Positions 11,746-40,359 of a DNA stretch of 64,000 nucleotides are shown here, in pieces (the first letter of the stretch is position 1; every line of letters starts with the position of its first letter). The notes below the pieces were generated by a model that worked only from the letters and a program-made list of their open reading frames with translations, did not search any database and had not been told where the DNA came from. Origin of the DNA: Moraxella sp. TY6 (lineage in GTDB: Bacteria > Pseudomonadota > Gammaproteobacteria > Pseudomonadales > Moraxellaceae); NCBI RefSeq assembly GCF_048551375.1, contig NZ_JBLYZJ010000006.1, forward strand, positions 80,051-144,050. Direction: 5' to 3'. The position numbers and the translations under genes were made by a program.

Positions 11746-12756
11746 ATGTCATTTAATCTACATAATCATAGCCTATTAAGCCTTGTTCATCATTCATCTC
11801 GTGATTTACGTTTTTTGCTTGATTTATCTCGTGACCTAAAACGTGCCAAATACAGCGGTACTGAGCAACAACGCCTAAAAGGCAAAAACATCGCCCTTAT
11901 TTTTGAAAAAACCTCAACTCGTACTCGTTGTGCTTTTGAAGTCGCTGCTTATGACCAAGGGGCAAACGTTACCTATATCGACCCAACCTCATCACAAATC
12001 GGTCACAAAGAATCCATGAAAGACACCGCTCGTGTATTGGGTCGTATGTATGATGCCATCGAATACCGTGGCTTTCGCCAAGAGTTGGTGCTTGACCTTG
12101 ACAAATATGCAGGCGTACCAATTTTTAACGGTTTGACCGATGAATTCCACCCAACCCAAATGTTGGCTGACGTACTTACCATGCTAGAAAATAGCGACAA
12201 ACCGCTACACGACATCAGCTATGTGTATGTGGGTGATGCTCGTAATAACATGGGTAACTCATTGCTATTGGTGGGGGCGAAACTGGGTATGGACGTGCGA
12301 ATTTGTGCCCCAAAAGCCCTACACCCTAGTGAAGATTTGGTCAAAATGTGCCAAGAATTTGCCGAACAAAGCGGTGCAAGAATCACCATCACTGATGACA
12401 TCAAACAAGCCGTGAATGGCGTGGACTTTATCCACACTGACGTTTGGGTATCCATGGGTGAGCCTATCGAATCATGGGGCGAGCGTATCGACATCTTGAT
12501 GCCTTATCAAGTCAACATGGACATGATGAAATTGGCAAACAATCCTCGTGTCAAATTCATGCACTGCTTGCCTGCATTCCACAACAGCGAAACCAAAGTC
12601 GGCAAACAAATCGCAGAACAATACCCAGCCCTTGCCAATGGTATCGAAGTGACCGAAGAAGTCTTTGAATCACCATACAACATCGCCTTTGAACAAGCTG
12701 AAAACCGTATGCACACCATCAAAGCTGTCATGGTATCAGCATTGGGTGGATTATAA
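11746..12756 (+). CDS. arcB: ornithine carbamoyltransferase (catabolic)
   Basis: 336 aa; STRTRCAFE and HCLPAFH motifs. Confidence 0.95.
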
Positions 12757-17098: not shown

Positions 17099-18166
17099 CT
17101 AACCAAACTGCCCAAACTGCTTTGCCACTTGCTGTTGGTAGCCCTGCCAAACGTTGGACTGACTAGCCGTATCCACAAGCGACCCTTGCCAACGAGGAAT
17201 CACTGCCTGCATACGGTTAAGGCGGATTTGACTACTCGCCACCATCCGCTCATGCTGTAGCCGTTCAAACGCCACCAATGCCGATTCCCTATCGTTACAC
17301 ACCAGCCCCATATCACAGCCTGCCTTGAGTGCCGACATCAGTCTATCGCCTGCATCCCCTGCGACATGGGCGGCCTTCATCGACAAATCGTCCGAAAACA
17401 CCACCCCATCAAACCCCAACTGCTCACGAATGATGCCTTGCACCCATTTTGGCGAAAAACCTGCTGGTTTATCATCGATTTGGGTAAACACCACATGAGC
17501 AGGCATCAACGCATCCAATAACGACAAATTCCGCATAAAGGGTTGCATATCTTGTTGATAAATCTCATCAAAACTGCGGTCATCATGGGCATCAGCATGG
17601 TGCGAATCGGGTGCAACCGAGCCATGTCCGGGGAAATGCTTACCTGTGGTCGCCATGCCTGCGGATTTCATGCCACGCATAAACTCGGCTGACAAGGCAG
17701 TGATGGCAGTTGGGTGAGCATGAAACGCCCTGTCGCCAATTACCGCACTCACACCATTGACATCTAGCACAGGGGCAAAGCTAAAATCCACGCCCACGGC
17801 TAGCACTTCGGTTGCCATGACATAGCCACTGGCAAAGGCAAGCTCTAGGGCATTAATGGGGTTGGTGTCGAACAATTCACCCAGCTTTCCCATCGGTGGA
17901 ATGGGTGAAAAGCCTTGGCGAAAGCGAGCCACTCGTCCGCCCTCTTGGTCAACGGCAATCAAGATATTGGGATTGACGGCTCGAATGCTGTCGGTAAGCT
18001 CTCGGACTTGGGTCGGTGATTCGACATTGCGTCCGAATAGGATAACGCCACCGACATGAGGGTCGGCGAGGAGTTGTTGGTCTTCGGTGGTGAGGGTCGT
18101 GCCTGCTACATCTAGCATGAGTTGACCGATTTTTGGGGTTGAATGGGTTGTCATTGTGTTTTCCAA
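17099..18166 (-). CDS. nagZ: beta-N-acetylhexosaminidase (GH3)
   Basis: 355 aa; GH3 N-domain motifs (LIAVDQEGGRV, KHFPGHG). Confidence 0.85.
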   Translation of the reverse strand: MENTMTTHSTPKIGQLMLDVAGTTLTTEDQQLLADPHVGGVILFGRNVESPTQVRELTDSIRAVNPNILIAVDQEGGRVARFRQGFSPIPPMGKLGELFDTNPINALELAFASGYVMATEVLAVGVDFSFAPVLDVNGVSAVIGDRAFHAHPTAITALSAEFMRGMKSAGMATTGKHFPGHGSVAPDSHHADAHDDRSFDEIYQQDMQPFMRNLSLLDALMPAHVVFTQIDDKPAGFSPKWVQGIIREQLGFDGVVFSDDLSMKAAHVAGDAGDRLMSALKAGCDMGLVCNDRESALVAFERLQHERMVASSQIRLNRMQAVIPRWQGSLVDTASQSNVWQGYQQQVAKQFGQFG

Positions 18167-18211
18167 AGCTTACGATAAATTGGTTTATTTTACGCCAAAC
18201 GATGACCAAAA

Positions 18212-19081
18212 TCACTGCCGATTTAGTCGAGTCGGTTTCGGTAAAAGTGCCAAATCACTCACTCGACATGGATTGATGTCAATACCGCCTCGCCGTGTGT
18301 ACCACGCACGTACCATCAGATTTTTGGGCGAAAAGGCTTGTGTCAAATCACTAAAAATCTGCTCAACACACTGCTCGTGAAAGCCATTATGCTGACGGAA
18401 AGTCAAAATATACTCAAGCAAACTTGCCTTATCAATCGGCAAACTATCTATCACAATTTCCACCGTTCCCCAGTCTGGTTGATTGGTCACAGGACAGTTT
18501 GAACGCAGTAAATGCGAATGGAAAATTTGAGGTTGGCTCGCTGTTTCAGCAGTTTTGGCAAAGGCTAAACATGAATTATCAACGTCTTGGCTAATCGCAA
18601 TTTTTTTATTCCCATTAAATAAACAGTTGTCTAACGCATTGTCGATACATTCACCTTGCGGTTCGCTAATCGGTAGGCTTTGGGTGGTTTTAACGTCAAA
18701 AATATCAATCGTCACTTTGGCTTGTACGCAGGCTGATAGGTCGGTTTCAACGGTGTTTTTAACTGCTTGTTGATTGTCAAACTCGGTAAAATTTAGGCTG
18801 TTAAAGTAGAGTTTTAGCGATTTTGATTCGACAATATTGGGCGAAGTGGCAGGAATGGCAAGGCGAGCCATAGCGACTTGCGAAATGCCTTGTGGGTTGA
18901 GCCAAGACACTTCAAAGGCGTGCCACCAGTCCATACCAATACTTAAATTTTCGGCAGGTAGGGCGAGTTTGGCTCTGCCCAGTTCTCGTGGAATGGGGTA
19001 GAGAACTTGGGGGCTGTAGGTTTTTGGGTAATCGGTGCTTTGACCGAGTTTGGAATTTTCTGGGGTGTGATTAATATTCAT
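18212..19081 (-). CDS. queF: NADPH-dependent 7-cyano-7-deazaguanine reductase (single-chain type II)
   Basis: 289 aa; VESKSLKLYFNSL QueF motif. Confidence 0.8.
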   Translation of the reverse strand: MNINHTPENSKLGQSTDYPKTYSPQVLYPIPRELGRAKLALPAENLSIGMDWWHAFEVSWLNPQGISQVAMARLAIPATSPNIVESKSLKLYFNSLNFTEFDNQQAVKNTVETDLSACVQAKVTIDIFDVKTTQSLPISEPQGECIDNALDNCLFNGNKKIAISQDVDNSCLAFAKTAETASQPQIFHSHLLRSNCPVTNQPDWGTVEIVIDSLPIDKASLLEYILTFRQHNGFHEQCVEQIFSDLTQAFSPKNLMVRAWYTRRGGIDINPCRVSDLALLPKPTRLNRQ

Positions 19082-19096
19082 GTTTTGTCTTATTGG

Positions 19097-19429
19097 TTAA
19101 AAGTTATGTTCTTCCGAATTTAAGCTTAATTCAAATGTTTTACCGTTTTGTTCGGGTTGCCAGCCTTTTTCTAACGCAATTTCAATAGCTTGGGCGACTA
19201 ATTTTGGAGTAATGACTAAAGTTTCAAGATTATCAGCCCAAGAGCCAAAATGTCCAAAACCATCTAACATAACGTGTAATACGCAATTGCCATTTTCTTG
19301 TTTTTCAACAGCAAAGTTTAAACCGTCACCAGACATTAAATTCCAGTAGTCAGTTTTATGGCGAACTCGCCAACGATATTCAACATCATTAACAACAATT
19401 TTCCGAGAGCCTTTTTTTGGGATTGACAT
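19097..19429 (-). CDS. hypothetical protein
   Basis: 110-aa ORF, stop/start adjacent to neighbouring genes. Confidence 0.35.
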   Translation of the reverse strand: MSIPKKGSRKIVVNDVEYRWRVRHKTDYWNLMSGDGLNFAVEKQENGNCVLHVMLDGFGHFGSWADNLETLVITPKLVAQAIEIALEKGWQPEQNGKTFELSLNSEEHNF

Positions 19430-19430
19430 T

Positions 19431-20204
19431 TTATAGCCTTACTCTCGACCCATCTTTTAGCAAATAATACGCAATTGCATAAAAAATCCCTGTAAAAATC
19501 CCAATCGCCACCAACGACCCCCACACATTGACATCCGAATGCCCCAAAATCCCATAGCGAAACGCATTCACCATATACACAATCGGATTAATCAAGCTGA
19601 CATTTTGCCAAAACTCGGGCAAATCCTTGAGCGAATAAAACACCCCACCCAAATAGGTCAATGGGGTCAGCACAAAACTCGGCACAATCGAAATATCATC
19701 AAACGAGCGAGCAAACACCGCATTAATCATACCGCCAAGCGAAAATAGGGCAGAAGTCATCACCACGGTAAACACGGTGACAAACGCATGAACCAACGTC
19801 AGTTTGGTAAAAAATAACGCCAACAGCGTGACAATCAAACCAATCGCCAAACCACGAAATAGCCCACCTGCGATAAAACCCAATAAAATCGTGTGTTTAG
19901 AAATCGGACTGACGAGCATCTCTTCGATATTGCCATGAAACTTCGTCCCAAAAAAACTCGATACCACGTTGGAGTAGCTATTGGTAATCACCGCCATCAT
20001 AATCAACCCCGGTACGATAAACTGCATATACGGCACACCGCCCATGTCGCCCACTCGTGAGCCAATCATTTTACCAAAAATGATAAAATATAAGCTCATG
20101 GTAATGGCAGGGGGCAGTAGGGTTTGAGGCCAAATGCGTAAAATTCGGCGGATTTCTTTAATCGTCAGCGTGGTAAAGGCGACCCATTGTTTTTGAAAAT
20201 TCAT
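19431..20204 (-). CDS. ABC-2 family exporter permease
   Basis: 257 aa, 6 TM segments; 0-bp gap to the ATPase gene. Confidence 0.8.
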   Translation of the reverse strand: MNFQKQWVAFTTLTIKEIRRILRIWPQTLLPPAITMSLYFIIFGKMIGSRVGDMGGVPYMQFIVPGLIMMAVITNSYSNVVSSFFGTKFHGNIEEMLVSPISKHTILLGFIAGGLFRGLAIGLIVTLLALFFTKLTLVHAFVTVFTVVMTSALFSLGGMINAVFARSFDDISIVPSFVLTPLTYLGGVFYSLKDLPEFWQNVSLINPIVYMVNAFRYGILGHSDVNVWGSLVAIGIFTGIFYAIAYYLLKDGSRVRL

Positions 20205-21299: not shown

Positions 21300-21911
21300 T
21301 TATTTGGCACTATTAACCATATAGTCAACGGCATTGGTAACTTCGACATCTAACAGGTCAGTTTTACCACCTTTGGCAGGCATGGCGTTAAAGCCTTGTA
21401 AAGCATGTTGGTGCAGTGTGGCTGTGCCTTTACCAATACGAGCTGACCAGTCGCCTTTGTTGCCATATTTTGGAGCACCTAACAAACCTGCACCATGACA
21501 AGTTTGGCAAACGCCCTCATAAATCATTTTGCCTTCACGAGGGTTATTTGGGTCGGCTGGGCCTAAAGTAGCGGCGATAGTGATATCACACTCTTGACCT
21601 TCAAAACATACCTTGCCTTGTGGGGCGATACGAGCAATCAGATTAGGGTACAATGCCACTAATTTTGCGGTTTGAGGTGGGTCTTGAGGGATTTTTGGCT
21701 CTTCTTTTTTTGGGGCAGAAGCAGGAGCAGATGCCACACTTGCCACAGGTGCAGAAGCAGTCGCACTGGCTGAACTGGCGGTCGTGGTTGTGACAGTGGT
21801 GGTCGTGGTTGTGGTGGTTGATGCAACCACGGTTTCATTAGCGGCTTGGCTGACAGCGATACCTGCTACACTAAGCAAGCTGACCGCTGATAACATAACT
21901 ACTTTTTTCAT
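21300..21911 (-). CDS. c-type cytochrome (c4/c5-like) with Thr/Ala/Ser-rich linker
   Basis: signal peptide, TTTTTTTTVTTTT..SASATASAP linker, single CQTCHG heme motif. Confidence 0.7.
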   Translation of the reverse strand: MKKVVMLSAVSLLSVAGIAVSQAANETVVASTTTTTTTTVTTTTASSASATASAPVASVASAPASAPKKEEPKIPQDPPQTAKLVALYPNLIARIAPQGKVCFEGQECDITIAATLGPADPNNPREGKMIYEGVCQTCHGAGLLGAPKYGNKGDWSARIGKGTATLHQHALQGFNAMPAKGGKTDLLDVEVTNAVDYMVNSAK

Positions 21912-22118: not shown

Positions 22119-25100
22119 TTAATCACTAAAAATCTGATTGAGTTTTTGCAAGTTATTGACTATCAGCTTACCTGTTTGGTCGGTGCTGATGTCGATTTGC
22201 AGTTTCTCATCCAACCGCATGACGATGGGTTCTAACGCTTGTTTTAACCCCTCAATCAGTTGGCTGTTCGCTTGGCTATTAGTTTGACTGTTACTTTGAG
22301 CTTGCTTGTCGCTAGTTTCACCATTTGCCAATACCGATTCATCCGTTGGATTTACCACTTTTAACGCATTGATGGCGGTGACGAGGGTCAGTGCCAGTTC
22401 TTTGAGCAATGCCTGTTGCTGTTGTTGTTGCTGGAGTTCGACTTTGCGTTGGTGTTGGTAGAGTTGTCCAATTTTGGCAAAACTTTTTTCCACAAATACA
22501 TTCAGGCTGTTTTCAAGGTGTTGGCTGTTTTGGCTGACCCATTGCTGTTGTTGGGCTTGTTGTAGCATTTGTTGCTCAAGCTGTTGTTTGGCATACACTT
22601 CATTGATTTTTAACAATAATTCATGTTCGGCTTGTTGGGTTTCGTCAAGATTTGGGGCAGTTTGTTGCTGTTGTACCCATTGCCCGACTTGCTGATTCAT
22701 GCCTTGCACGCCTGCCACCAAGTCCACCAGTTGAGCCACCATGCGGTTGCCTGTGTCGCTACTGTCACCGCCCATCGCTTTGTTGCGTAAAAAGTCCGCC
22801 ACGATTTGCGACCAACGAGCCTGTTCTGCCTCGGTCATCACGCCTCGGATTTGGGCAAGTTTTAGCAAGTTGCTTTCCGCCCCTGTGGTGAGCAGTTGTG
22901 CCTCGCCTTGATAGTGGTCGCCAATCAGTTGTTGCAGTTCGCTGTCGTTCATCACGGCAGAGAGTTTTTCGGTCATTTTGTTCATGTTGCGATAACTGCC
23001 CTGTAGCTTAAAGGCAGGCTCGGTGCGGTATTTGTCATCTTGCGAGGCAGAGGCGATATACTGCTGATTGACTTGTAAAATGACCTGTTGCACCGCAAGC
23101 ATTTTTTGCAAAATCGCCACGATTTCTTGGATTTCGCTGTTGGCGTAGGGGTGGGTAAGTTCGCCCAATGCGGTGATTTTGCCTTGTGCCAAGTCGATAA
23201 ATTGATACACATCCGCCATGTCACGGTTGGCAAGTGGGGCGAGAATGGCGTTACTGGTGAGGGCGTTTTCGAGGTAGCTTAACGCAAACACCTGTTCCAT
23301 ACCGTTCATCATGTCGCCGAGGTTGTAGATATCGGCACGGTTGGCAAGCATATCTGGGACTTTGAACACCTCGCCTGTTTCGGTGTAGGGGTTGCCCGCC
23401 ATCACCACGCAGAATTTTTTGCCTCGCATATCGTAGGTTTTGCTTTCGCCTTGCCATACGCCGTCAATGCGTCTTGTGCCGTCTGTTAATGAGATAAATT
23501 TTTGTAAAAATTCGGCATGAGTATGCTGAATATCGTCCAAATACAACATGACATTGTTGCCCATTTCGAGGGCTAAATTCAGCTTTTCTAGCTCTCGACT
23601 GGCGGTGGCATTGGGGGCTTTGGCAGGGTCAAGCGAAGTCACCTCATGCCCCAGCGAAGGGCAGTTGATTTTCATAAAAATCAAGCCCAAACGGTTTGCC
23701 ACATATTCCATCAAGGTAGTTTTGCCATATCCAGGGGGCGAAATCAGCATTAACAACCCCATCAAATCGGTGCGTTTGCTGTCGCCCAATGTGCCGATTT
23801 GTTTGGCAAGATTATCACCGATAATCGGCAAATAACTGTCATTAATCAAACGGTTACGCACAAAGGATGATAGCGGACGAGCGACAAATTCATCAAGGCG
23901 TAAATCCAACCGTGCTTGGGTCAGTAGGTCATGGCGTAGGCGTTGGTACTGGCGAAACTTCGGAATGGCGGTATGTTCATGCTGATAAAGTTGGCTTAAA
24001 AAACTGTCTAAGCTAAAGGTAAGCGTCTGATTCGGCAATTTGGGATGTTCGCCCAATAAGCGACTGACACTGACTTCAAGCGAAATCGGACTGATGTCAC
24101 GCTGAAAGTTGGGCGTTTGTTTATCACTGCGAATCATCAACATAGCCACCGTTTCGGCAACATAATGCGATAGATTATCCATTGACAACTTGTCGGCTGA
24201 TACGCCATCGGCTAATTGGCTGTCACTTTGGCGAAGTAAATCTAGCAAAGCGTTAAGCCATGTGGTCGCCAGTTCATAGGCTGATTTTGGCTCATGGCTC
24301 AGTTTCGACAACACCGATTGTAAATAGTTAAAACGCTCTAGCCCAACGGTGGTTTCAAGTTTTTGATAAAGTGTGTTCGCTTGTTGGGTGGTTTGCCAAA
24401 AAATACCATTCCCAAAAAGTCCACTATCTTTGTCAAACTCGCTTGATGTACTACTTGTACTATCTTCGCTCGTTTGCCTCGATATTGAACTTTTTGCTTT
24501 TGGTATTTGATTGAGGGTGTGATTTGCTGTTAAATCTATTTTTGCTAACCCCAAAACTTGAGCGAGATAGTCACTGGCTAAGTCAATCTGTGATTGGCTA
24601 AATAAATTTGGCATTTTGGCTTGGACAAATTCGCCCAAAACCGCACGAATATCCGCCACCAATAGATTTTTGGCGGTGTCACTGTGTAGGGCTTGTTGTA
24701 ATTGATAAGCAGTAATCGCTCGGTCTTGCCAATGGCGAATTTCGGCTTGATGGGGGGTGAACCATGCTGTTTCCGCTTGCACTAAACTTGGTGAAGGGCT
24801 TGTCGAAGGGTTGGTAGTGGGATTTGAAACGTTATGGTTCGACAGGCTCACCACGAACGTTTTATTTTGCTGATGTAAAGTAATCTGCTCAAAGAAAATC
24901 TGTGCCAACGCTCGCACAGTCGGCTCAAAGGTGAGTAAATTGGCAGTCTGTAGCAACGGCAAAATCTGCAACAATATCAACACCGCATCATGGTCATGAA
25001 TGCCTTTTTCGTAGCCAAATTGATAACTTGGCGTGATATAAGTTTTGACCAAATCCAGTAGCGGACTGTCATTTTCGGGGTTTGCAAGGTTGTGGCTCAT

Positions 25101-28100
25101 TTCAAAGGCTTGATACAGCTTTTGGGTGGTCAAACCGTCTTGCCCTTGTTTGGCGGATTGTAGCAGACTGTACGCCAAATATTCCCCACGATAAATCTCA
25201 CTGGTTTCACTAGGCAGGCTCATATCCCAATACTCGGATAGGCTGTTTAGCTCGGCATTGTCAATGGCTTGGTAAAAATTCGTGCCTGTCAAATGCAGGG
25301 TCAATACCGCTTGATTGTCGTCATTTTGGCGTGATAACAGGGTCAAATCTAGCGGTTGACTATTGACAGAAAACCGATGTTTACCCAGTTTTATCACATT
25401 ACCATCATTTTCAAACAGCTCGGTTTTATCCTTTAAAGCCTTGTAGCTGTCGGTGGCGATGGCTTTGAGGCGTGCGTCAATGTCGTCAGCTTTGACACTA
25501 AAGCCCAGTTCACGCAAGGTTTTACCAATGCCTTTAACTTTTTGCACCAAGGCATCCGAGGCAAAGTAAGTGTTAAGGCTCGCCTCATCGCTAAAGCCTG
25601 TCGTGCCACTAGCCATCACACGTTTGGCGATACTGGCAAGCATTCGTTGGGCGGAATCGCTTAAGTTTTGGGCTTTTTTGTTGCGTTCGTCCAGTAGCCG
25701 TTGTTTATGCCCTTTAAAACTGTCGATGACCTCTTCACGTTTTGCCAGTAATTCTTCGCCAAATTGAACTTGCACCGCCTCGACATCGACAAATTGCCCC
25801 TCAAGCTCTTCAAGTTGCACCAACAACCGTGCCAACTGCTCATCGGCTTGCTCTGGCGTGTTGGCAAGCGACAACGCATTGGCAATCGACTGGCTAAATA
25901 GGCGAAATTGTGCCGAAAACTGTGCCACCGCCTCAGTCGCCCCAAAACTTTGGCGTTGGTGATTGAGCTTGGCTTTGGACTGGTTGAGTTTGGCATAAAC
26001 CTGCGAAATTTGGTCGATAATCTGCGTGCGTACCGTGGCATCAGCGACATCAAGGGTCGCCAAAATCTCGGTCAATACATCCAGCCCATGAGCCGTGTCA
26101 TTGATGGTGGTCAAAATCGGCTCAAGCTCGGCATGGGTGGTCGCCGAATCTCGCTGACTGTCAAGCTGTGTCAATAGCGTGTCAAAACTGGCAAACGCTT
26201 GGCTATCGCTCAAAAACGCCACCGTCTGCTCGGCAAGTTGGCTTTCGGCTTGGCTAAGGTCTGCCTTGAGGCTGTCTAGGCGAGCGGTATCAAGGTAGCG
26301 AAGTCCCTCAAGGCTAATCAATCGCCCTTGTTGCTGACGCAGTTGGCTCAACGCATTGACATAATCGCCAATGTTCACAAAAGTCGTGGTGCTGACTTGA
26401 CGCAGTAGGTCGGTCTGCTCACTGTGGGCGGTGTCGAGGGCAGTTTGGGTTTGTTTTTGGATGGCTTGGACTTTGGCAAATTCATCAATTACCAACCCAC
26501 TGGTATCAATGATTTGTCGAATGGTGTCTGCCAATTCCGCCAATTGCGGTTCGGCAAGCCAATAATAACTGTCAAACAGCTTACTGGCGGTCGAGGCAAG
26601 CTGTTGATATAGCTTTTGCGATACGCTTTGATTGGCAATCAGCCGTGCCACACTGTACAAATCAGCAATCCCTCGCACAAGGGCTTTATTGCCGATTTTG
26701 CCATAAAACCCAGTCGCCTCGCCCTGTTGACTGGCGTATTCTTCGGAGGTAAAAGGCGTTTGCCAAATCTGCATCGGATGAATACGAGTGACCTCGTCAC
26801 TGCTAAACAGCACCATCACGCCATTGGGGGCAAGGGCAAAACCATGACAAAAAATCGGATTTTGTAATTGTTTTTTGATTAAATTATAGCCAAACAGTCC
26901 ATACAGCCCTGCGACACTGTCATAAAACACAAACAGCACATCCTCGCCATTGGGTGAGGCGATTTTTTTGAAAAAACTCAACGCATTATCAGTGTGTTGG
27001 CTGTTGCTCGGCTCATCAAACCGCTTGTGTTCGCCTGTTTGCAAATAATAGCCATTGGGAAACACAATGCCGTGATTTTCGGGCAACTGCACGCACGATT
27101 GCCCAATCGCATCAAGGCGAGTGACCTGCTCGGTCAGACTGTTGTACACCAAATAGCGGTAATTATCCTCACGATACGGCAAAATCTTTAATAAAATCAA
27201 ACTGCCAACTTTGGCATAAAACACACTGGCATCGCTCACCGCTTGGGTGCTGTCTTGCACGTTTTCTTGATAAATGCCTGTCGCTATATTCGGATTATTA
27301 TCAAGCTTGACGGTCAACGAACCGCCCACCGTTGACACAAAAATCGTGTCCAAAATATTGCTATGCGGATATTTGCCATTGACCAGTTGCTCACGAGTGA
27401 CCGCCGTCCAGTCAAAATCATAGGCAGGGGGCAGGGCGATATCTCGCTCGCCACGATTGTCGATATACTGAATCGCCAAGCCGTCTGGGGCGTTGGCATC
27501 AAAGCTAATGCCAAAACGAAATACTCGGATATCGCTAATGCGTTCGCCAATCTGAAAGGCAAGCAGTAGTTTACTATCCTTGAGGGTAAGCTGTAGCAGT
27601 TTGGTCTGTTTGTAGTAGCGGTATAGCTCGTCAAAGTCTTGTTTAAAACTGCCTTGGCTCAAAAATGAGGTGGCTAAATCCACCGCTTGCAGGTGATATT
27701 CGGCTGGCGAGGGGTTGGTGTTGTCGTCAGTATTTCCAGTATTCCCAATATTCCCAGTGTCGGCAGTGTCCGTATGGTCTGCCGAAATGAGGCTAACTTG
27801 ATTGGGGTCAATCAGCCGATACAGGGCAAATACGTCATCAAGGGTGGTGTCTTGCTTGATACCTGTTTGGGTGTTGTAGCCAAATAGTAGGTAATTGCCG
27901 ACTTGCACGAGGTCACGAGCGAGGGCGTTGTGTTCGGTGCGGATGGGGGTGCGAGCGAGTAGTTGAAGTTGGGTGTTGCCAAATTCGGACAGGCGTGCGT
28001 CATTTAACGCTTGGGTTTGTTGGCTCAAGCGGTTGCCTTGCTCGGTGAGGCGTTTCTTGATTAAGTCGTAAGCGTTGCCTGTGGCGACGGCTTTACTTTG

Positions 28101-30997: not shown

Positions 30998-33004
30998 TTA
31001 TTCTGCATTGTTTGCTGAGTTATTTGTTGCCGAATTTTGGTTATCTAAACCATTCACCGATTTAGCGACTTTATCAGCAATGACATGATTAATTAACCCA
31101 TTTAACACATTGGATTTACCTGCCAATCCATCAATCGCCTTACCAATCGACAAGGATTTGGCAAAGTTATCAAAGAAATGTTCCTCACCGCCCACAATGT
31201 CGATTTTGGCTTTTTGTAGGGCAGTGGCAAGCACTTCGGCATTTTCTTTGGCGATTTCTTTGCCTGCTTCAATGGATGCCAATGCCTCTTGTAGAGCGGT
31301 TTCCAGCCCCATACGGTATTCTTCATGCTCACGAGCAGATTGGCTCATGCTACCCATCGCATTGAATTTTTCCACCAAGCCATCGGCTTCGGCTTTGAAG
31401 TGCTGACGAGTGACTTCGGCTTTGGCAAGTCCCACTTCTCGCTCGGCTTTGGCGTTGGATTCGCCACGCACGGCAATGACCTCGGCATTTGCCAAGCCAA
31501 TTTCACGGTCGGCAACCGCTTGGGCTTGACCAGATTTAAGGCGAGCTTCGGCTTCGGCTTCGCCAGTGGCTTTGATGACATTGGCTTTGGCAAGTCCTTC
31601 TTTCTCAAGGGCAACGGCTTTGGCTTCTTGAATCACCGCTTCGGCTACGCCATGAGCAGATTCTTCGGCTTTGATACCTTCTGCCAGTTTAATTTTGGCA
31701 TCGGCTTCTTTTTGAGCAGAATCGAGTTTGGCTTGAGCAAGGGTGATGATTTCTTGGGCTTTATGGCGAGCGGATAGCTCTTGAGCCTCGGCTTCTTTGA
31801 CCTGACGGACTTTGATTTCTTCGGCTTCGGCTTCGGCAGCCAAGATTTTGGTTTGTTTGGCACGGTCGGCTTCAGAGATTTGGCGGACTTCTTTGATACG
31901 CTCTTCTTCCATTGCCACGGTTTTATCCACGGCGACACGCTCACGCACCACATTGGCGATTTCTTTTTTCTCTTGCTCAATGGCTCGTTCGGCTTCGATA
32001 CGTTGTAGCTCGACTTCACGCTCACGAGAGACGATTTCTAACGCACGGGCTTTGGTGACTTTTTCTTCTTCAATCGCCACCGCACGCAGACGGTTTTGGC
32101 TGGCGACTTCGATTTCACGTTGTTGGATTTCACGTTGCACCGCCAAATCTTGCTCGACCAAAATCACCGCACTTTCGGCTTTTTTGCGTTCTTCTTCTTG
32201 AATGCGTTTGGTTTCGGCTTCCTCACGAGCGATAGACGAGGCGACTTCACGGCGTTGTTTGGCGGTGGCATCGGCTTGTTGGCGTTCTAGCTCTAGCATG
32301 GCTTCGGCGGTTTCGACATTTTTCTTTTTGATTGCCAGTTCTTGATTTCGCTCAAGTTCATTGGTATGCACGTTCTGCACAGCAGTGATTTCGGTGATTT
32401 TGCGAATACCTTCCGCATCTAGGATATTGTTGGGGTCAAGCGAGATTTTGGGGGTTTGCTCAAGGTAATCAATCGCCACATCTTCGAGGACATAACCTCC
32501 CAAGTCATTACCAATTTCACGGATAATGCGTTCACGAAATTCATGGCGATTTTCAAAAAGTTTAATAAAATCAATTTGTTTTCCCACGGTTTTGAGGGCT
32601 TCGGCAAATTTGGCATTAAACAGCTCATTGACGGCATCTTTGTCGGACGCTCGCTCGACACCGACCGTTTTGGCGACTTTTAGCACGTCTTCGGCAGTTT
32701 CGTTGACACGCAGATAAAAGGCGACCGAGATATCCGCTCGGATATTGTCACGGCAAATCAAGCCCTCTTTGCCACGTTTATCGACCTCAAGGCGAATTAG
32801 GGCAATCCGCATAAGTTCTTTGCGGTTGATGACGGGCCAAACCAGACCACCGTCAAACCGCACAGAAATTTTGTTGATACCATTGATAATTAAGGCATTG
32901 CCTTGGTCAATTTTGTAATAAAAGGCTTTGAGCATGAGTAGCAGTGCCATCACAAATACAAATACGATGACCACGACCACGCCGACCATAATTAGAATAT
33001 CCAT
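30998..33004 (-). CDS. flotillin-like SPFH/band-7 protein (YqiK-like) with long Ala/Glu/Lys coiled-coil
   Basis: 668 aa; N-terminal TM, SPFH domain, extended AEAK repeat coiled-coil; RBS AAGAGGAAA. Confidence 0.85.
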   Translation of the reverse strand: MDILIMVGVVVVIVFVFVMALLLMLKAFYYKIDQGNALIINGINKISVRFDGGLVWPVINRKELMRIALIRLEVDKRGKEGLICRDNIRADISVAFYLRVNETAEDVLKVAKTVGVERASDKDAVNELFNAKFAEALKTVGKQIDFIKLFENRHEFRERIIREIGNDLGGYVLEDVAIDYLEQTPKISLDPNNILDAEGIRKITEITAVQNVHTNELERNQELAIKKKNVETAEAMLELERQQADATAKQRREVASSIAREEAETKRIQEEERKKAESAVILVEQDLAVQREIQQREIEVASQNRLRAVAIEEEKVTKARALEIVSREREVELQRIEAERAIEQEKKEIANVVRERVAVDKTVAMEEERIKEVRQISEADRAKQTKILAAEAEAEEIKVRQVKEAEAQELSARHKAQEIITLAQAKLDSAQKEADAKIKLAEGIKAEESAHGVAEAVIQEAKAVALEKEGLAKANVIKATGEAEAEARLKSGQAQAVADREIGLANAEVIAVRGESNAKAEREVGLAKAEVTRQHFKAEADGLVEKFNAMGSMSQSAREHEEYRMGLETALQEALASIEAGKEIAKENAEVLATALQKAKIDIVGGEEHFFDNFAKSLSIGKAIDGLAGKSNVLNGLINHVIADKVAKSVNGLDNQNSATNNSANNAE

Positions 33005-33110
33005 GTTTATTTCCTCTTTAAAATTTTTTTGGTTTAACTATTTTGTTTGAAAAATGGTTTCATAGCGTGGTTTTGCAATTTATTTAGCATAACCTTCGTT
33101 AATGAAAAAT

Positions 33111-33572
33111 TCAGTTAAAAAACTCGCTTACTTTATGTGGTTGGGGCAAAATTTGATTTAAAAAATCACTATAATTAAAGCTACCATCTTGATTTTTATA
33201 ATCATTTTTAACAAATATATCATCTATCCAGTGACTATGACCTATTAAAGTATTTAGTTGATTAATAGTTGCTACTTCGCTAATTTCATTAAAGTTTTTG
33301 TTAAACAGATTGGTTAAAAGTCTATGAATTTCTGCTCGTAGCCTGCCATGCTCACTATTAGGATATTCAGCGATTTTTTGAAAAAATTTAGCATAATCAA
33401 AACGATTATCTGTATTAAAAAAATCATTTGACCAAAATACCAAATCACTCCAGTAAGGGTCGGGTGATAGTTGCGAAATTTGCTCAAATAATTTGGCTTG
33501 ATGCTCTTCTGCCAAATCACCTTTCAATAATTGTTCGAGTAATAATTGAATTTTCTGCTCGTTTTCTGTCAT
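33111..33572 (-). CDS. hypothetical protein (AT-rich insert within the NfeD-flotillin operon)
   Basis: 153-aa ORF, about 30% GC, no motif. Confidence 0.4.
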   Translation of the reverse strand: MTENEQKIQLLLEQLLKGDLAEEHQAKLFEQISQLSPDPYWSDLVFWSNDFFNTDNRFDYAKFFQKIAEYPNSEHGRLRAEIHRLLTNLFNKNFNEISEVATINQLNTLIGHSHWIDDIFVKNDYKNQDGSFNYSDFLNQILPQPHKVSEFFN

Positions 33573-33622
33573 TTATTTATCTCAAAAGTTTTATAATGTT
33601 GATTTCTAATTCAAAAAACCAG

Positions 33623-34366
33623 TCAATTCAATCCTTTAACACGGTAGGCATTACTATCGCCCAAATACTCCACCAAAACCACCGTATCGCCCTGCACAAA
33701 ATTTTTATCAAACGCTCGCACCTTTAAAATCAACCCTGCACCGCCATCATTGATGACCGCTTCGCCATGTGTATCATCGACCGTCATCGTCCGCACCACA
33801 GCCACTTGACCGACCAACGTATGATGACTGGTCACAGGTGAACTGGCAAAACGCTTGCGAATCGGTGCGACAATCAGCCCACTAATGGCTAAACTAACAA
33901 TGCTAATGGCAAGCAAAGTAAAAGTCGCAATGACAAAATAGCCAATCCCACTTGCCAAACTGGGCGGTAAAATCGCCTCAAGTAACACACCATTGAGATA
34001 ACTTAACACCCAACCTACCAAGCCAAACAACGTCAAAATGATAAAAATTGGCACGCCTTGCAAACCAAACTTTAGCAAAATACTGGCAATTAGCCCCATA
34101 TCACCGTCATGGTGGTGGGCGTGGGTATGGTGAGCGTGGTGGGTATTTGCGTCTGCGTGCAAATCAGCATGTGGGGCATGGTGAAAACCGTTTGTATCTC
34201 CAGACATATCAGCGTGAAAATCGGTATCCACATCGACCAAACCGAACACCGATACTAGCCAATATAAGGTGACAAATAGCACCAAGGCGGTAAAAATCAC
34301 CGTGGGGTAATGGCTGATATTTACCAAAAATGTTTGCATGGCAGGGCTAGTGAAAAACTCGGACAT
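33623..34366 (-). CDS. NfeD-like membrane protein (YqiJ-like) with His-rich loop and C-terminal OB-fold
   Basis: start taken at ATG 34366 (MSEFF..); TM segments, HHAPHADLHADANTHHAHHTHAHHH tract, C-terminal NfeD beta-barrel region; upstream of flotillin as in yqiJK. Confidence 0.7.
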   Translation of the reverse strand: MSEFFTSPAMQTFLVNISHYPTVIFTALVLFVTLYWLVSVFGLVDVDTDFHADMSGDTNGFHHAPHADLHADANTHHAHHTHAHHHDGDMGLIASILLKFGLQGVPIFIILTLFGLVGWVLSYLNGVLLEAILPPSLASGIGYFVIATFTLLAISIVSLAISGLIVAPIRKRFASSPVTSHHTLVGQVAVVRTMTVDDTHGEAVINDGGAGLILKVRAFDKNFVQGDTVVLVEYLGDSNAYRVKGLN

Positions 34367-34515
34367 CGGTATTCTCAATGGTGAAAAAGGGAATATAGGA
34401 AATAATGTTGAGTTAATATAGCATAAAATCATGGATGTGTAATGATATTCACCTTTTAGCAGGGCTTTATGCTAAAATTTTTGGCACTTAACAGACAGCA
34501 ATAAAAAGGACTTTT

Positions 34516-35328
34516 ATGACAACCTTTTACACCCTTATCAATCGAGTAACCACCGACAACATCACCACCGCCCACTATACCGCCAACTACCCCTCACAAG
34601 GGGCATGGAACGAACATGAACAACACATGGCAGCCTCGACAGGGGTACTCAGCTATGAACTTGAGAAGTTTTTCCCTCGTGCCGATATGCGAATTGGTCG
34701 GATTAGCCTTGATATTTTTGGCTTGATTCATTTTGGTGATTTTAGCATTACCACCCAAGTCATTCGTGGTGGACGCACCATCGAGCTGATAGAAGCCAAG
34801 ATGGAAGCCAATGGTAAAACCTGTATCGTGGCTCGTGCATGGCGAATGCAGACCAGTGACACCTCAGCAGTGGCAGGGCTAGAAGATGACCATATCGGAC
34901 ATCCCGAAAATTACTCTGATTGGGATGGCATGAAGCATTGGGGTGGGGGATTTATCAATAGTATCTACCTCAAAGCCGACCCCAATAACCGTCAAGGTGA
35001 GGGCATCGTGTGGGTGAATACCGATGTCGAGATGGTCACCGAAAACGGCAAAGCCATGCCAACCTCTGACTTCGTGCATCTGATGGGGATGGTCGATAGT
35101 GCCAATGGCATCGTGCCACGTATTCATCAGCCAAATGGTATTGAATGGTTATTTCCCAATTTGGATTTACAAATTCATTTGCATCGCTTACCGCAAGGGC
35201 GATGGCTAGGGCTAGAAACGGTTCAGCAAATCGGTAAAGATGGCGTGGGATTGACCAGTAGCGTGTTGCATGATGTACATGGGGCGTTTGGGCGGAGTGA
35301 ACAGATTTTGACGGTGAGGGAGATGTAA
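34516..35328 (+). CDS. thioesterase-fold protein (acyl-CoA thioesterase-like)
   Basis: 270 aa; double hot-dog-like pattern, weak. Confidence 0.45.
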   Translation: MTTFYTLINRVTTDNITTAHYTANYPSQGAWNEHEQHMAASTGVLSYELEKFFPRADMRIGRISLDIFGLIHFGDFSITTQVIRGGRTIELIEAKMEANGKTCIVARAWRMQTSDTSAVAGLEDDHIGHPENYSDWDGMKHWGGGFINSIYLKADPNNRQGEGIVWVNTDVEMVTENGKAMPTSDFVHLMGMVDSANGIVPRIHQPNGIEWLFPNLDLQIHLHRLPQGRWLGLETVQQIGKDGVGLTSSVLHDVHGAFGRSEQILTVREM

Positions 35329-37605: not shown

Positions 37606-38235
37606 TTAACCACCCATCCCTAAAAACCGTGGGTGCATCAAGGCATTAAAAAAGTGTTGCACAATCGCAGGTTCAACGGCAATGGTAGCGAGCATCCCAA
37701 AAACCCCACCAACCAAATGAGCAGAATGGTTGATATTACCACGCCCTTGACCGTCCGCCCACACGCTATAGCCCACATATAGCCCTGCAAACACAATCGC
37801 TGGTACAGGGATAAAGAACACCAATAGTGTACTCCACGGATTCATCAATACATAGCTAAACACCACTGCCGACACTGCCCCAGACGCACCAAGACTGCTA
37901 TAGCGAGGGTTGTTTTTATGCTTCATATAGGTCGGAATAATCGCCACCACAATCGCTGTCAAATAAAACAGTACATAGGCAATCGTGCCTGCACTGTCCA
38001 TAAAAAACCGCTGTACCACATTACCAAATGAAAACAAGGTAAACATATTAAAAAACAAGTGCATACCATCGGCATGAATAAAGCCATGCGTCACAAAACG
38101 GTCAACTTGCCCACGCTGTACCGCAGGCGGATAAAAAATCAGCCGTTGCATCAGTTGGGGCGACTGCCATGCAAGCAAGCTCACCACCACGGTGATAATG
38201 ACGATAAATAAATTATGATTGTAAATCAGTGACAT
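37606..38235 (-). CDS. rhomboid-family intramembrane serine protease
   Basis: 209 aa, 6 TM; GASGAV (catalytic Ser) and AHLVGGVFG (catalytic His) motifs. Confidence 0.8.
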   Translation of the reverse strand: MSLIYNHNLFIVIITVVVSLLAWQSPQLMQRLIFYPPAVQRGQVDRFVTHGFIHADGMHLFFNMFTLFSFGNVVQRFFMDSAGTIAYVLFYLTAIVVAIIPTYMKHKNNPRYSSLGASGAVSAVVFSYVLMNPWSTLLVFFIPVPAIVFAGLYVGYSVWADGQGRGNINHSAHLVGGVFGMLATIAVEPAIVQHFFNALMHPRFLGMGG

Positions 38236-38704
38236 AGTTTGTCCAAAGCAAATAAGATAATAATGAAAATCGGAATAAAGTAGTAATTTAGCACACTACT
38301 TGTGCAAAACCAATTTGTTCACAACAGCCGATTACATAAACTACAAAAGCCTTACTTATCACTACTCACCCATTTCACCAATAATTGACCCCATTCTTGC
38401 TCCCAAATATTTTTACAAAACTTAACATAAACTGAATTTTGCTACTTAATTTTCACAAAAGCCCTCGTGGTAACGCAAAGGTTGCTCAAATAAAAACAAA
38501 ACTTACCTAATTGTTACTTTAAAATAACTGAACGCAGGAAAATTTTCTATTATCTTAGGCTCAATTGTTAAAGGTTAGCAAAATTGATATAAAAACGGCT
38601 GTGATTAATAATCAAAATTTTATATTTATCGCTAACTTGCAACTAATTTATCATGTTATTAGACATGCGTTGGTAAATTAGTTGATAATCACATCGCTTA
38701 TCGT

Positions 38705-38770
38705 GGTAGTTATGTTTACGTGATAGTTATGTTTAATGGTTACATTTGATAGTTATGTTACTGTTATGTC
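38705..38770. promoter_or_regulatory. three direct repeats of (T/G)GRTAGTTATGTTWM upstream of the 38821 gene
   Basis: tggtagttatgtttac / gtgatagttatgtttaa / ttgatagttatgttac within a 530-bp AT-rich leader. Confidence 0.5.
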
Positions 38771-38820
38771 ATCCGTGACCCATCCGATAAGTCACTGAAC
38801 TTATTTTAGAGGAAATTGTT

Positions 38821-40359
38821 ATGAATATCATCGAGCATCTAGCCCGTACCGTTACACCAGTATTATTAGGCAATGCTGTTTCTGCCAATGACGGTCGCAC
38901 CTCATTGTTAGAAAAAGTCTATGCCATTATCGTTGCACGTCTAGCTGACAAAGACGTATATACCAAATTTGACAATATCAATGTGGATAATGAAGACCAC
39001 GGTTTCTTCGACCGTTTGCTTCCAGAAGCTAACTACCGTAGCACCATGGTACAAGAACTTGCCAAACACTACAGCGTGCCAGAGCAAGAAACTCAAAGCC
39101 TTATTCAACGTGCCGCACCATTGGTATTGAATGAATTACGTGGCTTATCAGGCACAACCTCACTACCCTCATTTTTGACCAATAATCTATCTTCATTGGT
39201 TAGCGTATTGCCAGCTTGGGCGTATGGCTTTATCCCAGCAGGTATCTTGGGTCTATTGAACATCAACCCAGTTCATGCTTCAACCACTCACGTACAACCA
39301 CAAACCGTGACCACCACTCGCACTGAAGAACATCTAGTTGCCACGCCAAAAGAAGAAGAGGGTGGCTTGATGAAAATCTTGTTGCCAATCATTGGTTTGC
39401 TAATCCTAGCTGCTTTGGCATGGGCATTGTTAAAATCATGTGGCAAAAAAGAAGAAGTCACCGCTGTACCTGTTGCTTCTACCACCCCAGCGAGCGTAGT
39501 GGTTGCCTCTGGCCCATCAGCCAGCTTACTTGCCCCAACCTTGGCTCTAGCCACTGGTGCTGATGGCAAACTAAGCCTAGGTGGCTTAGGTACGGTTGGT
39601 AACGAAGACCTAAAAACCAAAATTATGAGTGCCTTAACTGGTGTGTTTGGTGCGGATGCAGGTAATGCCGTAAACGTCAACGTTGACCCAGCTTATGATG
39701 TGAATATGCCTGTTGCTGATAAACTAGGCGATATCTTGAACCTTGTTAAAGCTGTACCAAACGCTGGTCTAAAAGTTGATGGCAACCATATCATGGTATC
39801 TGCTCCAGACGCAGCCGCCGCTGATAAATTGGTTAAAGACATCCAAGCCTTATCACCAGACTTTATGGTTATGCTTGATTCAGCAATGCCAGCCACAGCT
39901 TCAACCACCACATCAACGGCTAGTGTAACCACGACCACAACTACTATCTCATCAACTGAGCCATCAGTAGTATTTGACCATGGTCGTCTATCATTCTACT
40001 TCGCTACTGGTAAAGCTGATGTAGCAGGCAATGCAGTAGAAAAAGCACAAGAAATCCTTGATGCAGCTAAACAAGGTAAAGTATTGGGTGTAACTGGTTA
40101 CACTGATAGCACTGGTAATGCTGCTGCCAATGCTAAACTATCTAAAGAACGTGCCCAAGCCGTTAAAGCTTTCTTAGTTGCGAATGGTGTACCTGATGCA
40201 CAGCTAAAACTTATCAAACCAACTGACAGCGTTGGTGCTGAAGGTAAAGACCAAGAAGGTCGCCGTGTGGATGTATATATTGCTGATGACAATGCCGTTC
40301 CTGCAACTGCCTCTGTAACAACTACGCAAGTTACTACCGTTGCTAGCCCAGCAAAATAA
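38821..40359 (+). CDS. OmpA-family protein (N-terminal domain of unknown function, one TM helix, Thr-rich linker, C-terminal OmpA/MotB-like peptidoglycan-binding domain)
   Basis: 512 aa; TM at LMKILLPIIGLLILAALAWALL; C-terminal GYTDSTGNAAANAKLSKERAQAV OmpA motif. Confidence 0.6.
   Translation: MNIIEHLARTVTPVLLGNAVSANDGRTSLLEKVYAIIVARLADKDVYTKFDNINVDNEDHGFFDRLLPEANYRSTMVQELAKHYSVPEQETQSLIQRAAPLVLNELRGLSGTTSLPSFLTNNLSSLVSVLPAWAYGFIPAGILGLLNINPVHASTTHVQPQTVTTTRTEEHLVATPKEEEGGLMKILLPIIGLLILAALAWALLKSCGKKEEVTAVPVASTTPASVVVASGPSASLLAPTLALATGADGKLSLGGLGTVGNEDLKTKIMSALTGVFGADAGNAVNVNVDPAYDVNMPVADKLGDILNLVKAVPNAGLKVDGNHIMVSAPDAAAADKLVKDIQALSPDFMVMLDSAMPATASTTTSTASVTTTTTTISSTEPSVVFDHGRLSFYFATGKADVAGNAVEKAQEILDAAKQGKVLGVTGYTDSTGNAAANAKLSKERAQAVKAFLVANGVPDAQLKLIKPTDSVGAEGKDQEGRRVDVYIADDNAVPATASVTTTQVTTVASPAK

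Follow-up and report, generated by a model that had tools for sequence, protein, structure and literature searches.

Whether a row of closely spaced, co-directional genes represents one functional system or a resident operon that has taken up unrelated neighbours is the question raised by a locus of Moraxella sp. TY6. In a stretch of 64,000 nucleotides of contig NZ_JBLYZJ010000006.1, which was analysed as a whole and is here called the window, eight open reading frames (ORFs) lie on the minus strand between positions 22119 and 34432, where an initial annotation had placed them. Read from 5' to 3' along that strand, they encode a YqiJ/NfeD-like membrane protein (J), an AT-rich orphan ORF product of 153 amino acids (aa), a flotillin (F), a RhuM and a Fic/Doc ORF product, a double zinc-ribbon protein (Z), a protein with the domain DUF4062, and a giant ATPase (A). 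We consider it likely that the array is a mosaic, in which a resident, vertically inherited J-F-A operon and the accessory gene Z are accompanied by unrelated, strain-specific cargo genes travelling as passengers.

The J-F-A triad is defined by its synteny across distant bacteria. One genome per GTDB species was scanned for homologues of A with a 20-sequence alignment, which recovered at least 585 species. From these, 80 A loci were kept with 10-kb flanks, and their six-frame ORFs were searched with the window proteins. The loci originate from Gamma-, Beta- and Zetaproteobacteria, Myxococcota, Desulfobacterota, Actinomycetota, Bacteroidota, Planctomycetota and Verrucomicrobiota (at least 8 phyla), and those with any upstream DNA were counted as testable. 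F is located directly upstream of A on the same strand in 74 of 74 testable species loci, and J upstream of F on the same strand in 70 of 70, so that the three genes are adjacent and co-directional. The gaps are typically short, with a median of about 100 bp between F and A and less than 100 bp (usually below 200 bp) between J and F. The same arrangement is seen in the gene calls of Psychrobacter, Gynuella, Teredinibacter and M. lincolnii, and a pair of DUF2170 and PspA genes lies upstream of J in about 35-40 loci, or roughly half of them (including L004 and L090). In the relatives, the NfeD-like and flotillin genes are linked to the ATPase gene in every testable locus. Judged by gene order and homology, the coupling of flotillin and ATPase suggested in the initial annotation is real and ancient, and it has already been described in silico.

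That description concerns an operon of CesT/Tir(DUF2170), PspA, YqiJ, flotillin and AAA+ genes, of which abbreviated forms lacking PspA are widespread (Ravi et al., 2024, mSystems, PMC11237479). The Moraxella locus has the same components in the same gene order on one strand: a YqiJ-like protein with three transmembrane (TM) segments, a flotillin composed of TM segment, SPFH domain and coiled coil, and an AAA+ ATPase that also comprises an N-terminal coiled coil and a beta-propeller, with the genes here separated by inserts. It differs from the published operon in that the window holds neither the DUF2170-PspA dyad nor the HKD phospholipase, and in that both intergenic gaps hold foreign genes. 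Since PspA and DUF2170 are absent from the window, we assign the locus to the abbreviated form. The study of Ravi et al. is purely computational, and our literature search found no experimental work on the J-F-A operon; a survey of SPFH proteins in P. aeruginosa does not mention the ATPase.

Among known gene pairs, yqiJK of E. coli and yuaF-floT of B. subtilis are similar to the window locus, as an NfeD-like gene precedes an SPFH gene on the same strand, and J and F are homologous to YqiJ and YqiK. They differ in having no giant ATPase partner, and the window J and F are split by an inserted ORF. The missing ATPase in E. coli yqiJK, and the fact that some of the inserted genes match defence-candidate models, could be taken to mean that only a yqiJK-like pair is resident here, and that everything downstream, including the giant ATPase "paired" with the DUF4062 protein, is accreted defence cargo. 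We regard this as extremely improbable, as A follows the F subfamily in all 74 testable loci across phyla, has a native GC (guanine plus cytosine) content, has no match in PADLOC, and never stands beside DUF4062 elsewhere. Of the two readings offered in the initial annotation, a resident yqiJK-like operon with accreted defence cargo is still the better frame, with the amendment that the giant ATPase belongs to the resident part and that the zinc-ribbon gene is a recurrent accessory.

The assignment of J and F required a direct comparison with E. coli, because neither protein had a match in Pfam (even at E<10, where Band_7 and Flot both missed F), in NCBIfam or among PDB sequences, even with a family profile. 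Reference yqiJ and yqiK were drawn from the MG1655 record. J (33623-34366, minus strand) is a YqiJ/YuaF-type protein that spans the membrane several times and has an OB-like domain at its C-terminus. It probably starts at Met23 (position 34366) and has 247 aa, as in the NCBI protein WP_419400754.1, although the ORF reaches 34432 (269 aa). A hidden Markov model (HMM) of the J family, built from 75 orthologues, aligned with almost the whole of E. coli YqiJ (E=1.6e-15; hhalign probability 96%), and J is 45% identical to the product of a Psychrobacter gene upstream of flotillin. F (30998-33004, minus strand; 668 aa) starts with a TM helix, which is followed by an SPFH-like domain and a long coiled coil rich in Ala and Glu. 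In BLASTP it aligned collinearly with E. coli YqiK across residues 6-444 (E=2e-41, 28% identity), a range that includes both the TM segment and the SPFH region, and it is 66-91% identical to proteins of Psychrobacter, Teredinibacter, Gynuella and Hahellaceae. These similarities identify J as a true homologue of YqiJ and F as a true homologue of YqiK, each belonging to a divergent subfamily, and the labels "NfeD" and "flotillin" given to them at the outset are correct.

J additionally carries a His-rich loop, HHAPHADLHADANTHHAHHTHAHHHDGD, at window positions 34090-34200 (approximately residues 80-110 of the 269-aa ORF), after the first TM helix and before the remaining ones. In the orthologue from Psychrobacter, this place is taken by a stretch of comparable length but different sequence, which contains no His. 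Metal binding would be a possible role of the loop.

A is a protein of 2001 aa (22119-28124, minus strand) that probably starts with the ATG at 28124, while the TTG-started ORF begins at 28136. It consists of an N-terminal helix, a beta-propeller (DUF3686), DUF7902, a long helical and coiled-coil region, an AAA+ module and a Gln-rich helical tail. Pfam matches were obtained for DUF3686 (5e-174), DUF7902, AAA, AAA_5 and AAA_22, and the protein is 100% identical to the NCBI entry "DNA repair ATPase [unclassified Moraxella]". Its homologues number in the thousands and carry the same name, and the N-terminal region alone forms 810 clusters at 50% identity. The DUF3686 region (aa 37-525; 26562-28028, minus strand) comprises the N-terminal helix and the propeller. 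An AlphaFold2 (AF2) model of aa 1-560 reached a predicted local distance difference test score (pLDDT) of 87.4 and a predicted TM-score of 0.85, and shows a helix (21-52), an all-beta part (58-459) and further helices. When this model was searched against PDB with Foldseek, the top matches were all beta-propellers (Elp, IFT-A, the WD domain of LRRK2, Sec12 and YncE), with a probability of about 1 and a low TM-score, none of them being close. The names "DNA repair ATPase" (NCBI) and "ATPase involved in DNA repair" (Pfam PF12458) found no support, with DUF3686 being a beta-propeller region. The only repair-like signal in A was a RuvB match at the P-loop, which remained below threshold (15.6 bits against a cut-off of 299). 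A full-text search of 8 million papers for DUF3686 or PF12458 returned no mention.

The AAA+ core of A (aa ~1460-1607; 23316-23759, minus strand) was examined in an alignment of 20 sequences from several phyla, in which the motifs SPPGYGKTT (Walker A), LYLDDIQH (Walker B), MAGNPYTE and ANRAD are invariant. Within Walker B (23535-23549, residues 1530-1538), an invariant Asp-Asp replaces the usual Asp-Glu and is followed by an equally invariant Gln-His. The whole of A found no match among PDB sequences. A profile of the AAA region matched classical AAA proteins best (Rix7/NVL, p97/Cdc48, AFG2 and NSF; E ~1e-5 to 1e-6), and since these matches extend only around Walker A, no AAA clade was assigned.

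From these domains, and by analogy with SPFH/NfeD cages and with PspA, we propose how the operon may work. F, aided by J, would form an oligomeric scaffold of the SPFH type at the inner membrane. A, as a cytoplasmic ATPase, would use its propeller and coiled coil to dock onto F, or else onto a PspA/ESCRT-III-like polymer whose gene lies elsewhere. Under envelope stress, A would then hydrolyse ATP to drive the assembly, remodelling or extraction of proteins at this scaffold, in a manner loosely resembling that of Vps4 on ESCRT-III. PspA is a phage-shock protein and a bacterial homologue of ESCRT-III. The comparison with Vps4 is meant as an analogy: A has Walker motifs resembling those of classical AAA proteins and is genomically coupled to membrane-scaffold proteins, often including PspA. 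It differs from Vps4 by its size of about 2000 aa, its propeller and its DD-type Walker B, and neither an MIT domain nor sequence kinship beyond the P-loop region was found. The cargo genes are probably read through from the operon promoter and would not be parts of this flotillin-ATPase machine.

The genes of the array fall into three classes by composition. J, F, Z and A have GC contents of 0.46, 0.48, 0.44 and 0.47, and contents at third codon positions (GC3) of 0.48, 0.45, 0.49 and 0.52, respectively. The 153-aa ORF and the DUF4062 gene stand at 0.30 and 0.29 (GC3 0.22 and 0.23), and the RhuM and Fic halves at 0.39 each (GC3 0.36 and 0.38). The first four look native, the 153-aa ORF and the DUF4062 gene look foreign, and RhuM-Fic is intermediate. 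The two ORFs singled out earlier as outliers of about 30% GC (33111-33572 and 28143-29390) hence remain so against a window value of 0.43. These classes bear on the reading in which all eight ORFs form one integrated system, with a flotillin scaffold, a toxin module, a zinc-ribbon adaptor and a DUF4062-ATPase effector pair. The ORFs are indeed co-directional and separated by short gaps (50, 106, 28, -13, 28, 37 and 6 bp, from 5' to 3' along the minus strand), and no terminators are predicted between them. The initial annotation had likewise recognised none, and our scan placed zero terminator-like sites in the intergenic gaps. This is weak evidence, as the scan found in total 21 such sites in the region where 17.6 +/- 4.6 are expected from shuffled sequence. 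Apart from the foreign GC contents, RhuM-Fic is frameshifted, the DUF4062 homologues stand alone, and the toxin-like genes and DUF4062 accompany J-F-A in 0 of ~170 related loci. Close relatives carry other genes or nothing in the same gap. Synteny already refutes a single eight-gene system, which we hold to be highly improbable. The proposed coupling of a flotillin scaffold to an NTPase system therefore stands for J, F and A, and falls for the toxin-like module and the DUF4062 protein, which we place outside the triad on account of the missing homologues, the foreign composition and the frameshift.

We posit that the passengers represent at least three independent horizontal acquisitions in two intergenic gaps, all co-oriented with the operon: the 153-aa ORF between J and F, the RhuM-Fic gene, and the DUF4062 gene with its auxiliary region (AUX). 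The 153-aa ORF (33111-33572, minus strand) is an AT-rich orphan. It has no match in Pfam, NCBIfam, PADLOC, PHROGs or plasmids, and forms a singleton 90% cluster annotated as "hypothetical protein". Homologues of this ORF and of the DUF4062 protein were absent from two sets of related loci (88 + 80).

The DUF4062 gene (28143-29390, minus strand) encodes a protein of 415 aa, in which Pfam DUF4062 covers residues 6-92 (E=1.8e-19) and is followed by an auxiliary region of about 320 aa. The motif S83-I-T...E88 is invariant in 16 homologues. The 415-aa family is patchily distributed over Psychrobacter, Sphingopyxis, Enterobacter, Kosakonia and Bacteroidota, with the nearest member being 55% identical. 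In three unrelated genomes the homologues are solitary among housekeeping genes, and neither in these three contexts nor in the 88 + 80 loci was one found next to a DUF3686 ATPase. As its homologues are solitary genes in unrelated housekeeping contexts, DUF4062 does not form the pair with the giant ATPase that had been assumed. DUF4062 has been described as a TIR-like NADase, and DUF4062+AUX proteins as the single-gene abortive-infection systems Swarozyc and Evangelion (bioRxiv 10.64898/2026.05.01.722283; bioRxiv 10.64898/2026.06.25.731849). The window protein resembles these systems in its N-terminal DUF4062, the invariant Glu (E88), the long auxiliary C-terminal region, the solitary and patchy distribution, and the foreign composition. 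The equivalence of E88 to E97 of KpSwz is drawn from the description and not from an alignment, and the AUX regions are compared here by architecture only. The window gene differs in its location, which is an operon of housekeeping type and neither a defence island nor a plasmid. By these resemblances the gene is best read as a horizontally acquired gene of the defence type.

At their starts, the DUF4062 and A genes share the same nine bases, ATGAATAAT (Met-Asn-Asn; 29382-29390 and 28116-28124), a short direct repeat that brackets the AT-rich insert of 1.27 kb. The nearest DUF4062 homologues also start with MNNTPK, while relatives of A start with MTEEN, MNDQD or MPNLT. The repeat could be microhomology left by the insertion, or it could be due to chance in AT-rich DNA.

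The RhuM and Fic/Doc ORFs were described as two genes of the array. Both ORFs and both domains are present, each with a Pfam match, yet they are the halves of one gene (29996-30969, minus strand) that is split by a single-base frameshift into ORFs of 194 and 133 aa. The gene belongs to the PADLOC candidate family PDC-S23, whose profile of 327 positions is matched at positions 2-191 by the first ORF and at 206-324 by the second. Addition of one G to the GGG run at ~30398-30400 yields a protein of 324 aa that matches positions 2-324 of the 327 in one stretch (E=4e-110). In place of the single polypeptide of ~320-330 aa that characterises PDC-S23, the window thus holds a disrupted member. Intact homologues in a single coding sequence, named "RhuM/Fic/DOC family", are found on plasmids (40-45% identity), and the Doc-type motif HPFNDGNKR is intact in the C-terminal half. 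A sequencing error is made less likely by two assemblies from which the same two halves were deposited. No RhuM or Fic homologues were found in the 88 + 80 related loci. A programmed frameshift was considered and rejected for lack of support. A type II Phd-Doc toxin-antitoxin pair was also rejected, even though NCBI names the C-terminal half a type II toxin-antitoxin Doc toxin: the ORF upstream is the RhuM half, there is no Phd partner, and the match to TIGR01550 is at domain level only.

The position of these insertions was compared among close relatives, and the gap between F and A in this lineage behaves as a hypervariable cargo slot with always co-oriented genes. We call it hypervariable because the nearest relatives differ from the window in the cargo found there, or have none. 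In L089, whose flotillin is 86% identical, the F-A gap is empty and measures 219 bp. Two loci with flotillins in the 90% cluster of the window are occupied: L090 carries a single FRG-domain gene (PADLOC candidate PDC-S15, 30% GC), and L177 carries a 94-aa gene, a PIN gene, a 99-aa gene and a 440-aa gene. Among more distant loci, the zetaproteobacterium L024 contains two PD-(D/E)XK "transposase" genes in the gap, and L068 (Lampropedia) an NYN gene and, by sequence motif, an apparent nucleotidyltransferase/HEPN (MNT/HEPN) pair. The inserted genes are co-oriented with the operon in all 14 cases across five loci. Neither repeats nor conserved motifs were convincingly present beside the inserts, and a comparison of the F-end and A-start junctions of six loci likewise gave no convincing conserved sequence.

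Two of these gaps hold further ORFs. The "empty" gap of L089 contains an ORF of 39 codons, MIQEERFSIFDGLRMDFGHSDRHDGKVHDIPSFMLRRFT (12107-12229), the stop of which overlaps the ATPase start (TAATG); it could be a leader peptide or a remnant of former cargo. The 440-aa protein of L177 (3282-4604, 32% GC) abuts the ATPase start, has no match in Pfam or PADLOC, and resembles neither the DUF4062 protein of the window nor the FRG protein encoded in L090. Its gene is a candidate new cargo or defence gene.

The strict co-orientation fits selection against polar disruption of A, or, less likely, cargo that exploits stress-inducible transcription of the operon. The latter would lead to a functional slot, in which defence, toxin-antitoxin or nuclease genes are retained for the stress- or infection-inducible transcription of the operon or for its membrane platform. 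Five independent loci carry different cargo in the F-A gap with all 14 genes co-oriented, three of the four closest relatives differ at the slot, and the cargo includes DUF4062 (an NADase defence fold), FRG/PDC-S15, RhuM-Fic/PDC-S23, PIN and the apparent MNT/HEPN pair. The full-length form of the operon also includes PspA. Large inserts are nevertheless present in only ~5% of distant loci, no conserved flanking motif was found, and co-orientation is equally expected from purifying selection against polar or antisense insertions, so that we judge a functional slot to be rather unlikely. A bolder version, to which we give a low probability, would make the F-A junction a dedicated, orientation-constrained landing slot, where immunity, toxin-antitoxin and nuclease genes are swapped and expressed in a PspA-type "phage-shock" response. 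In that case, the operon would act as a chassis, triggered by stress, that carries variable anti-phage cargo and may also provide a membrane platform for its action.

Z is distinguished from the cargo by its linkage. The gene (29428-29967, minus strand) encodes a protein of 179 aa recognised by Pfam Zn_ribbon_TFIIB. Besides two CxxC...CxxC ribbons it has the motif WLDxGEW, and its C-terminal region is helical. Its full-length alignment with a protein encoded downstream of the Teredinibacter operon, after genes for a rhomboid protein and an M90 peptidase, gave 38% identity (E=1e-48). An HMM of Z detected homologues within 10 kb of A in 12 independent loci, and in three of these (L030, L058 and L066) the gene is located between F and A, as in the window. 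In the reciprocal test, which covered 42 metagenome contigs with a Z homologue and a length of at least 8 kb, J-F-A was found on the same strand in 12. Several of these 12 show the order J-F-A-rhomboid-M90-Z, and in some a small 78-aa gene comes next. On the strength of this recurrent linkage in independent loci, Z is, by homology, a loosely linked accessory gene of the J-F-A operon and not cargo.

Many Cellvibrionales-like loci (L004 at 17336-19558, L111, L113, L123, L153, L170 and others) display an extended order, in which J-F-A is followed by a rhomboid protease, a Peptidase_M90/SEC-C protein, Z and a small protein of ~78 aa without a Pfam match. The small protein is also encoded between F and A in the Pseudomonas-type loci L015, L021, L030, L049 and L076.

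The accumulation of defence-type genes beside A also raises the possibility that J-F-A itself serves in conflict or abortive infection, for example by combining a giant STAND-like NTPase sensor with a membrane effector, and not in housekeeping maintenance of the membrane. A is giant and combines a propeller repeat domain, a P-loop NTPase and a coiled coil. It also evolves faster than F in the same genome pairs, with 55% against 78% identity to Psychrobacter and 63% against ~91% to the closest metagenome relatives. The conservation of F argues against such a role: it is still 66-72% identical in other gammaproteobacterial orders, and its overall range of 66-78% across orders is unusually conserved for an immune gene. 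Moreover, no PADLOC model matches J, F or A, most loci lie among housekeeping genes, A is AAA+-like and not STAND, and the operon is linked to the envelope-stress genes PspA and DUF2170. An immune function of the triad is therefore very unlikely in our view.

Several points weigh against the mosaic of resident operon, accessory gene and passengers, or against the mechanism proposed for it. The A gene of Faucicola boevrei lacks both J and F, and is the sole exception found. No homologue of PspA or DUF2170 was found in the 64-kb window. The closest relative of Z (63% identical, L097) lies among housekeeping genes without J-F-A, so that in this genome Z could also have arrived by translocation instead of having long resided in the gap. 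RhuM and Doc, although split, could still work as separate proteins, and the AT-rich inserts may bring their own promoters. The AF2 model of F, built from a shallow alignment of 14 sequences, reached a pLDDT of 55 and remained below 50 in the SPFH region, so that the SPFH fold is not confirmed structurally. The coiled coil spans residues 233-598 in this low-confidence model, which was too poor to be used for a fold search. The remodelling activity of A, finally, is one that we infer from domain content and gene neighbourhood.

In the exceptional F. boevrei locus (L001; KB903778.1, 7225-15688), A immediately follows clpB on the same strand, and a prophage-like block of integrase and primase genes lies further downstream.

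The boundaries initially drawn for the array hold. On one side it is followed by a cytochrome c gene (21300-21911) and an ABC transporter, and the first strong terminator of the minus strand lies past the cytochrome c gene at 21277-21250. On the other side are a divergent acyl-CoA thioesterase gene on the plus strand (34516-35328) and a bestrophin gene. The divergent intergenic region upstream of J (34367-34515, 149 bp) was examined by a consensus scan, which pointed to a promoter-like site of the minus strand (34443-34415) that has an extended -10 element; the count of such sites in the region is not above shuffled expectation. No tRNA genes were found in the 64-kb window, and no integrase family matched among the ORFs scanned. 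PADLOC matches in the array are restricted to candidate families, for the RhuM-Fic gene, and do not amount to a defence island. A defence island or prophage context was accordingly rejected, given the housekeeping flanks and the absence of tRNA genes and of matches to integrase families among the scanned ORFs. Outside the array, a second AT-rich patch (38250-38900, GC ~0.30-0.33) is flanked by a gene end at 38235 and a gene start at 38821.

The core of the operon was already known in silico, and the present locus reveals a small hypervariable cargo slot inside an otherwise rigid operon. The locus separates real partners (J, F and A, and sometimes Z, the rhomboid protease, the M90 peptidase and the 78-aa protein) from noise, and this list of partners should stop false annotation of DUF4062 and RhuM-Fic through "guilt by association". 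With at least 585 species representatives, J-F-A is among the most widely conserved bacterial operons without characterisation, and its ATPase is mis-named "DNA repair ATPase". As it couples a flotillin scaffold, often together with PspA, to a giant AAA+ motor, we posit that this operon is a candidate for the missing ATP-driven remodeller of bacterial membrane-scaffold polymers.

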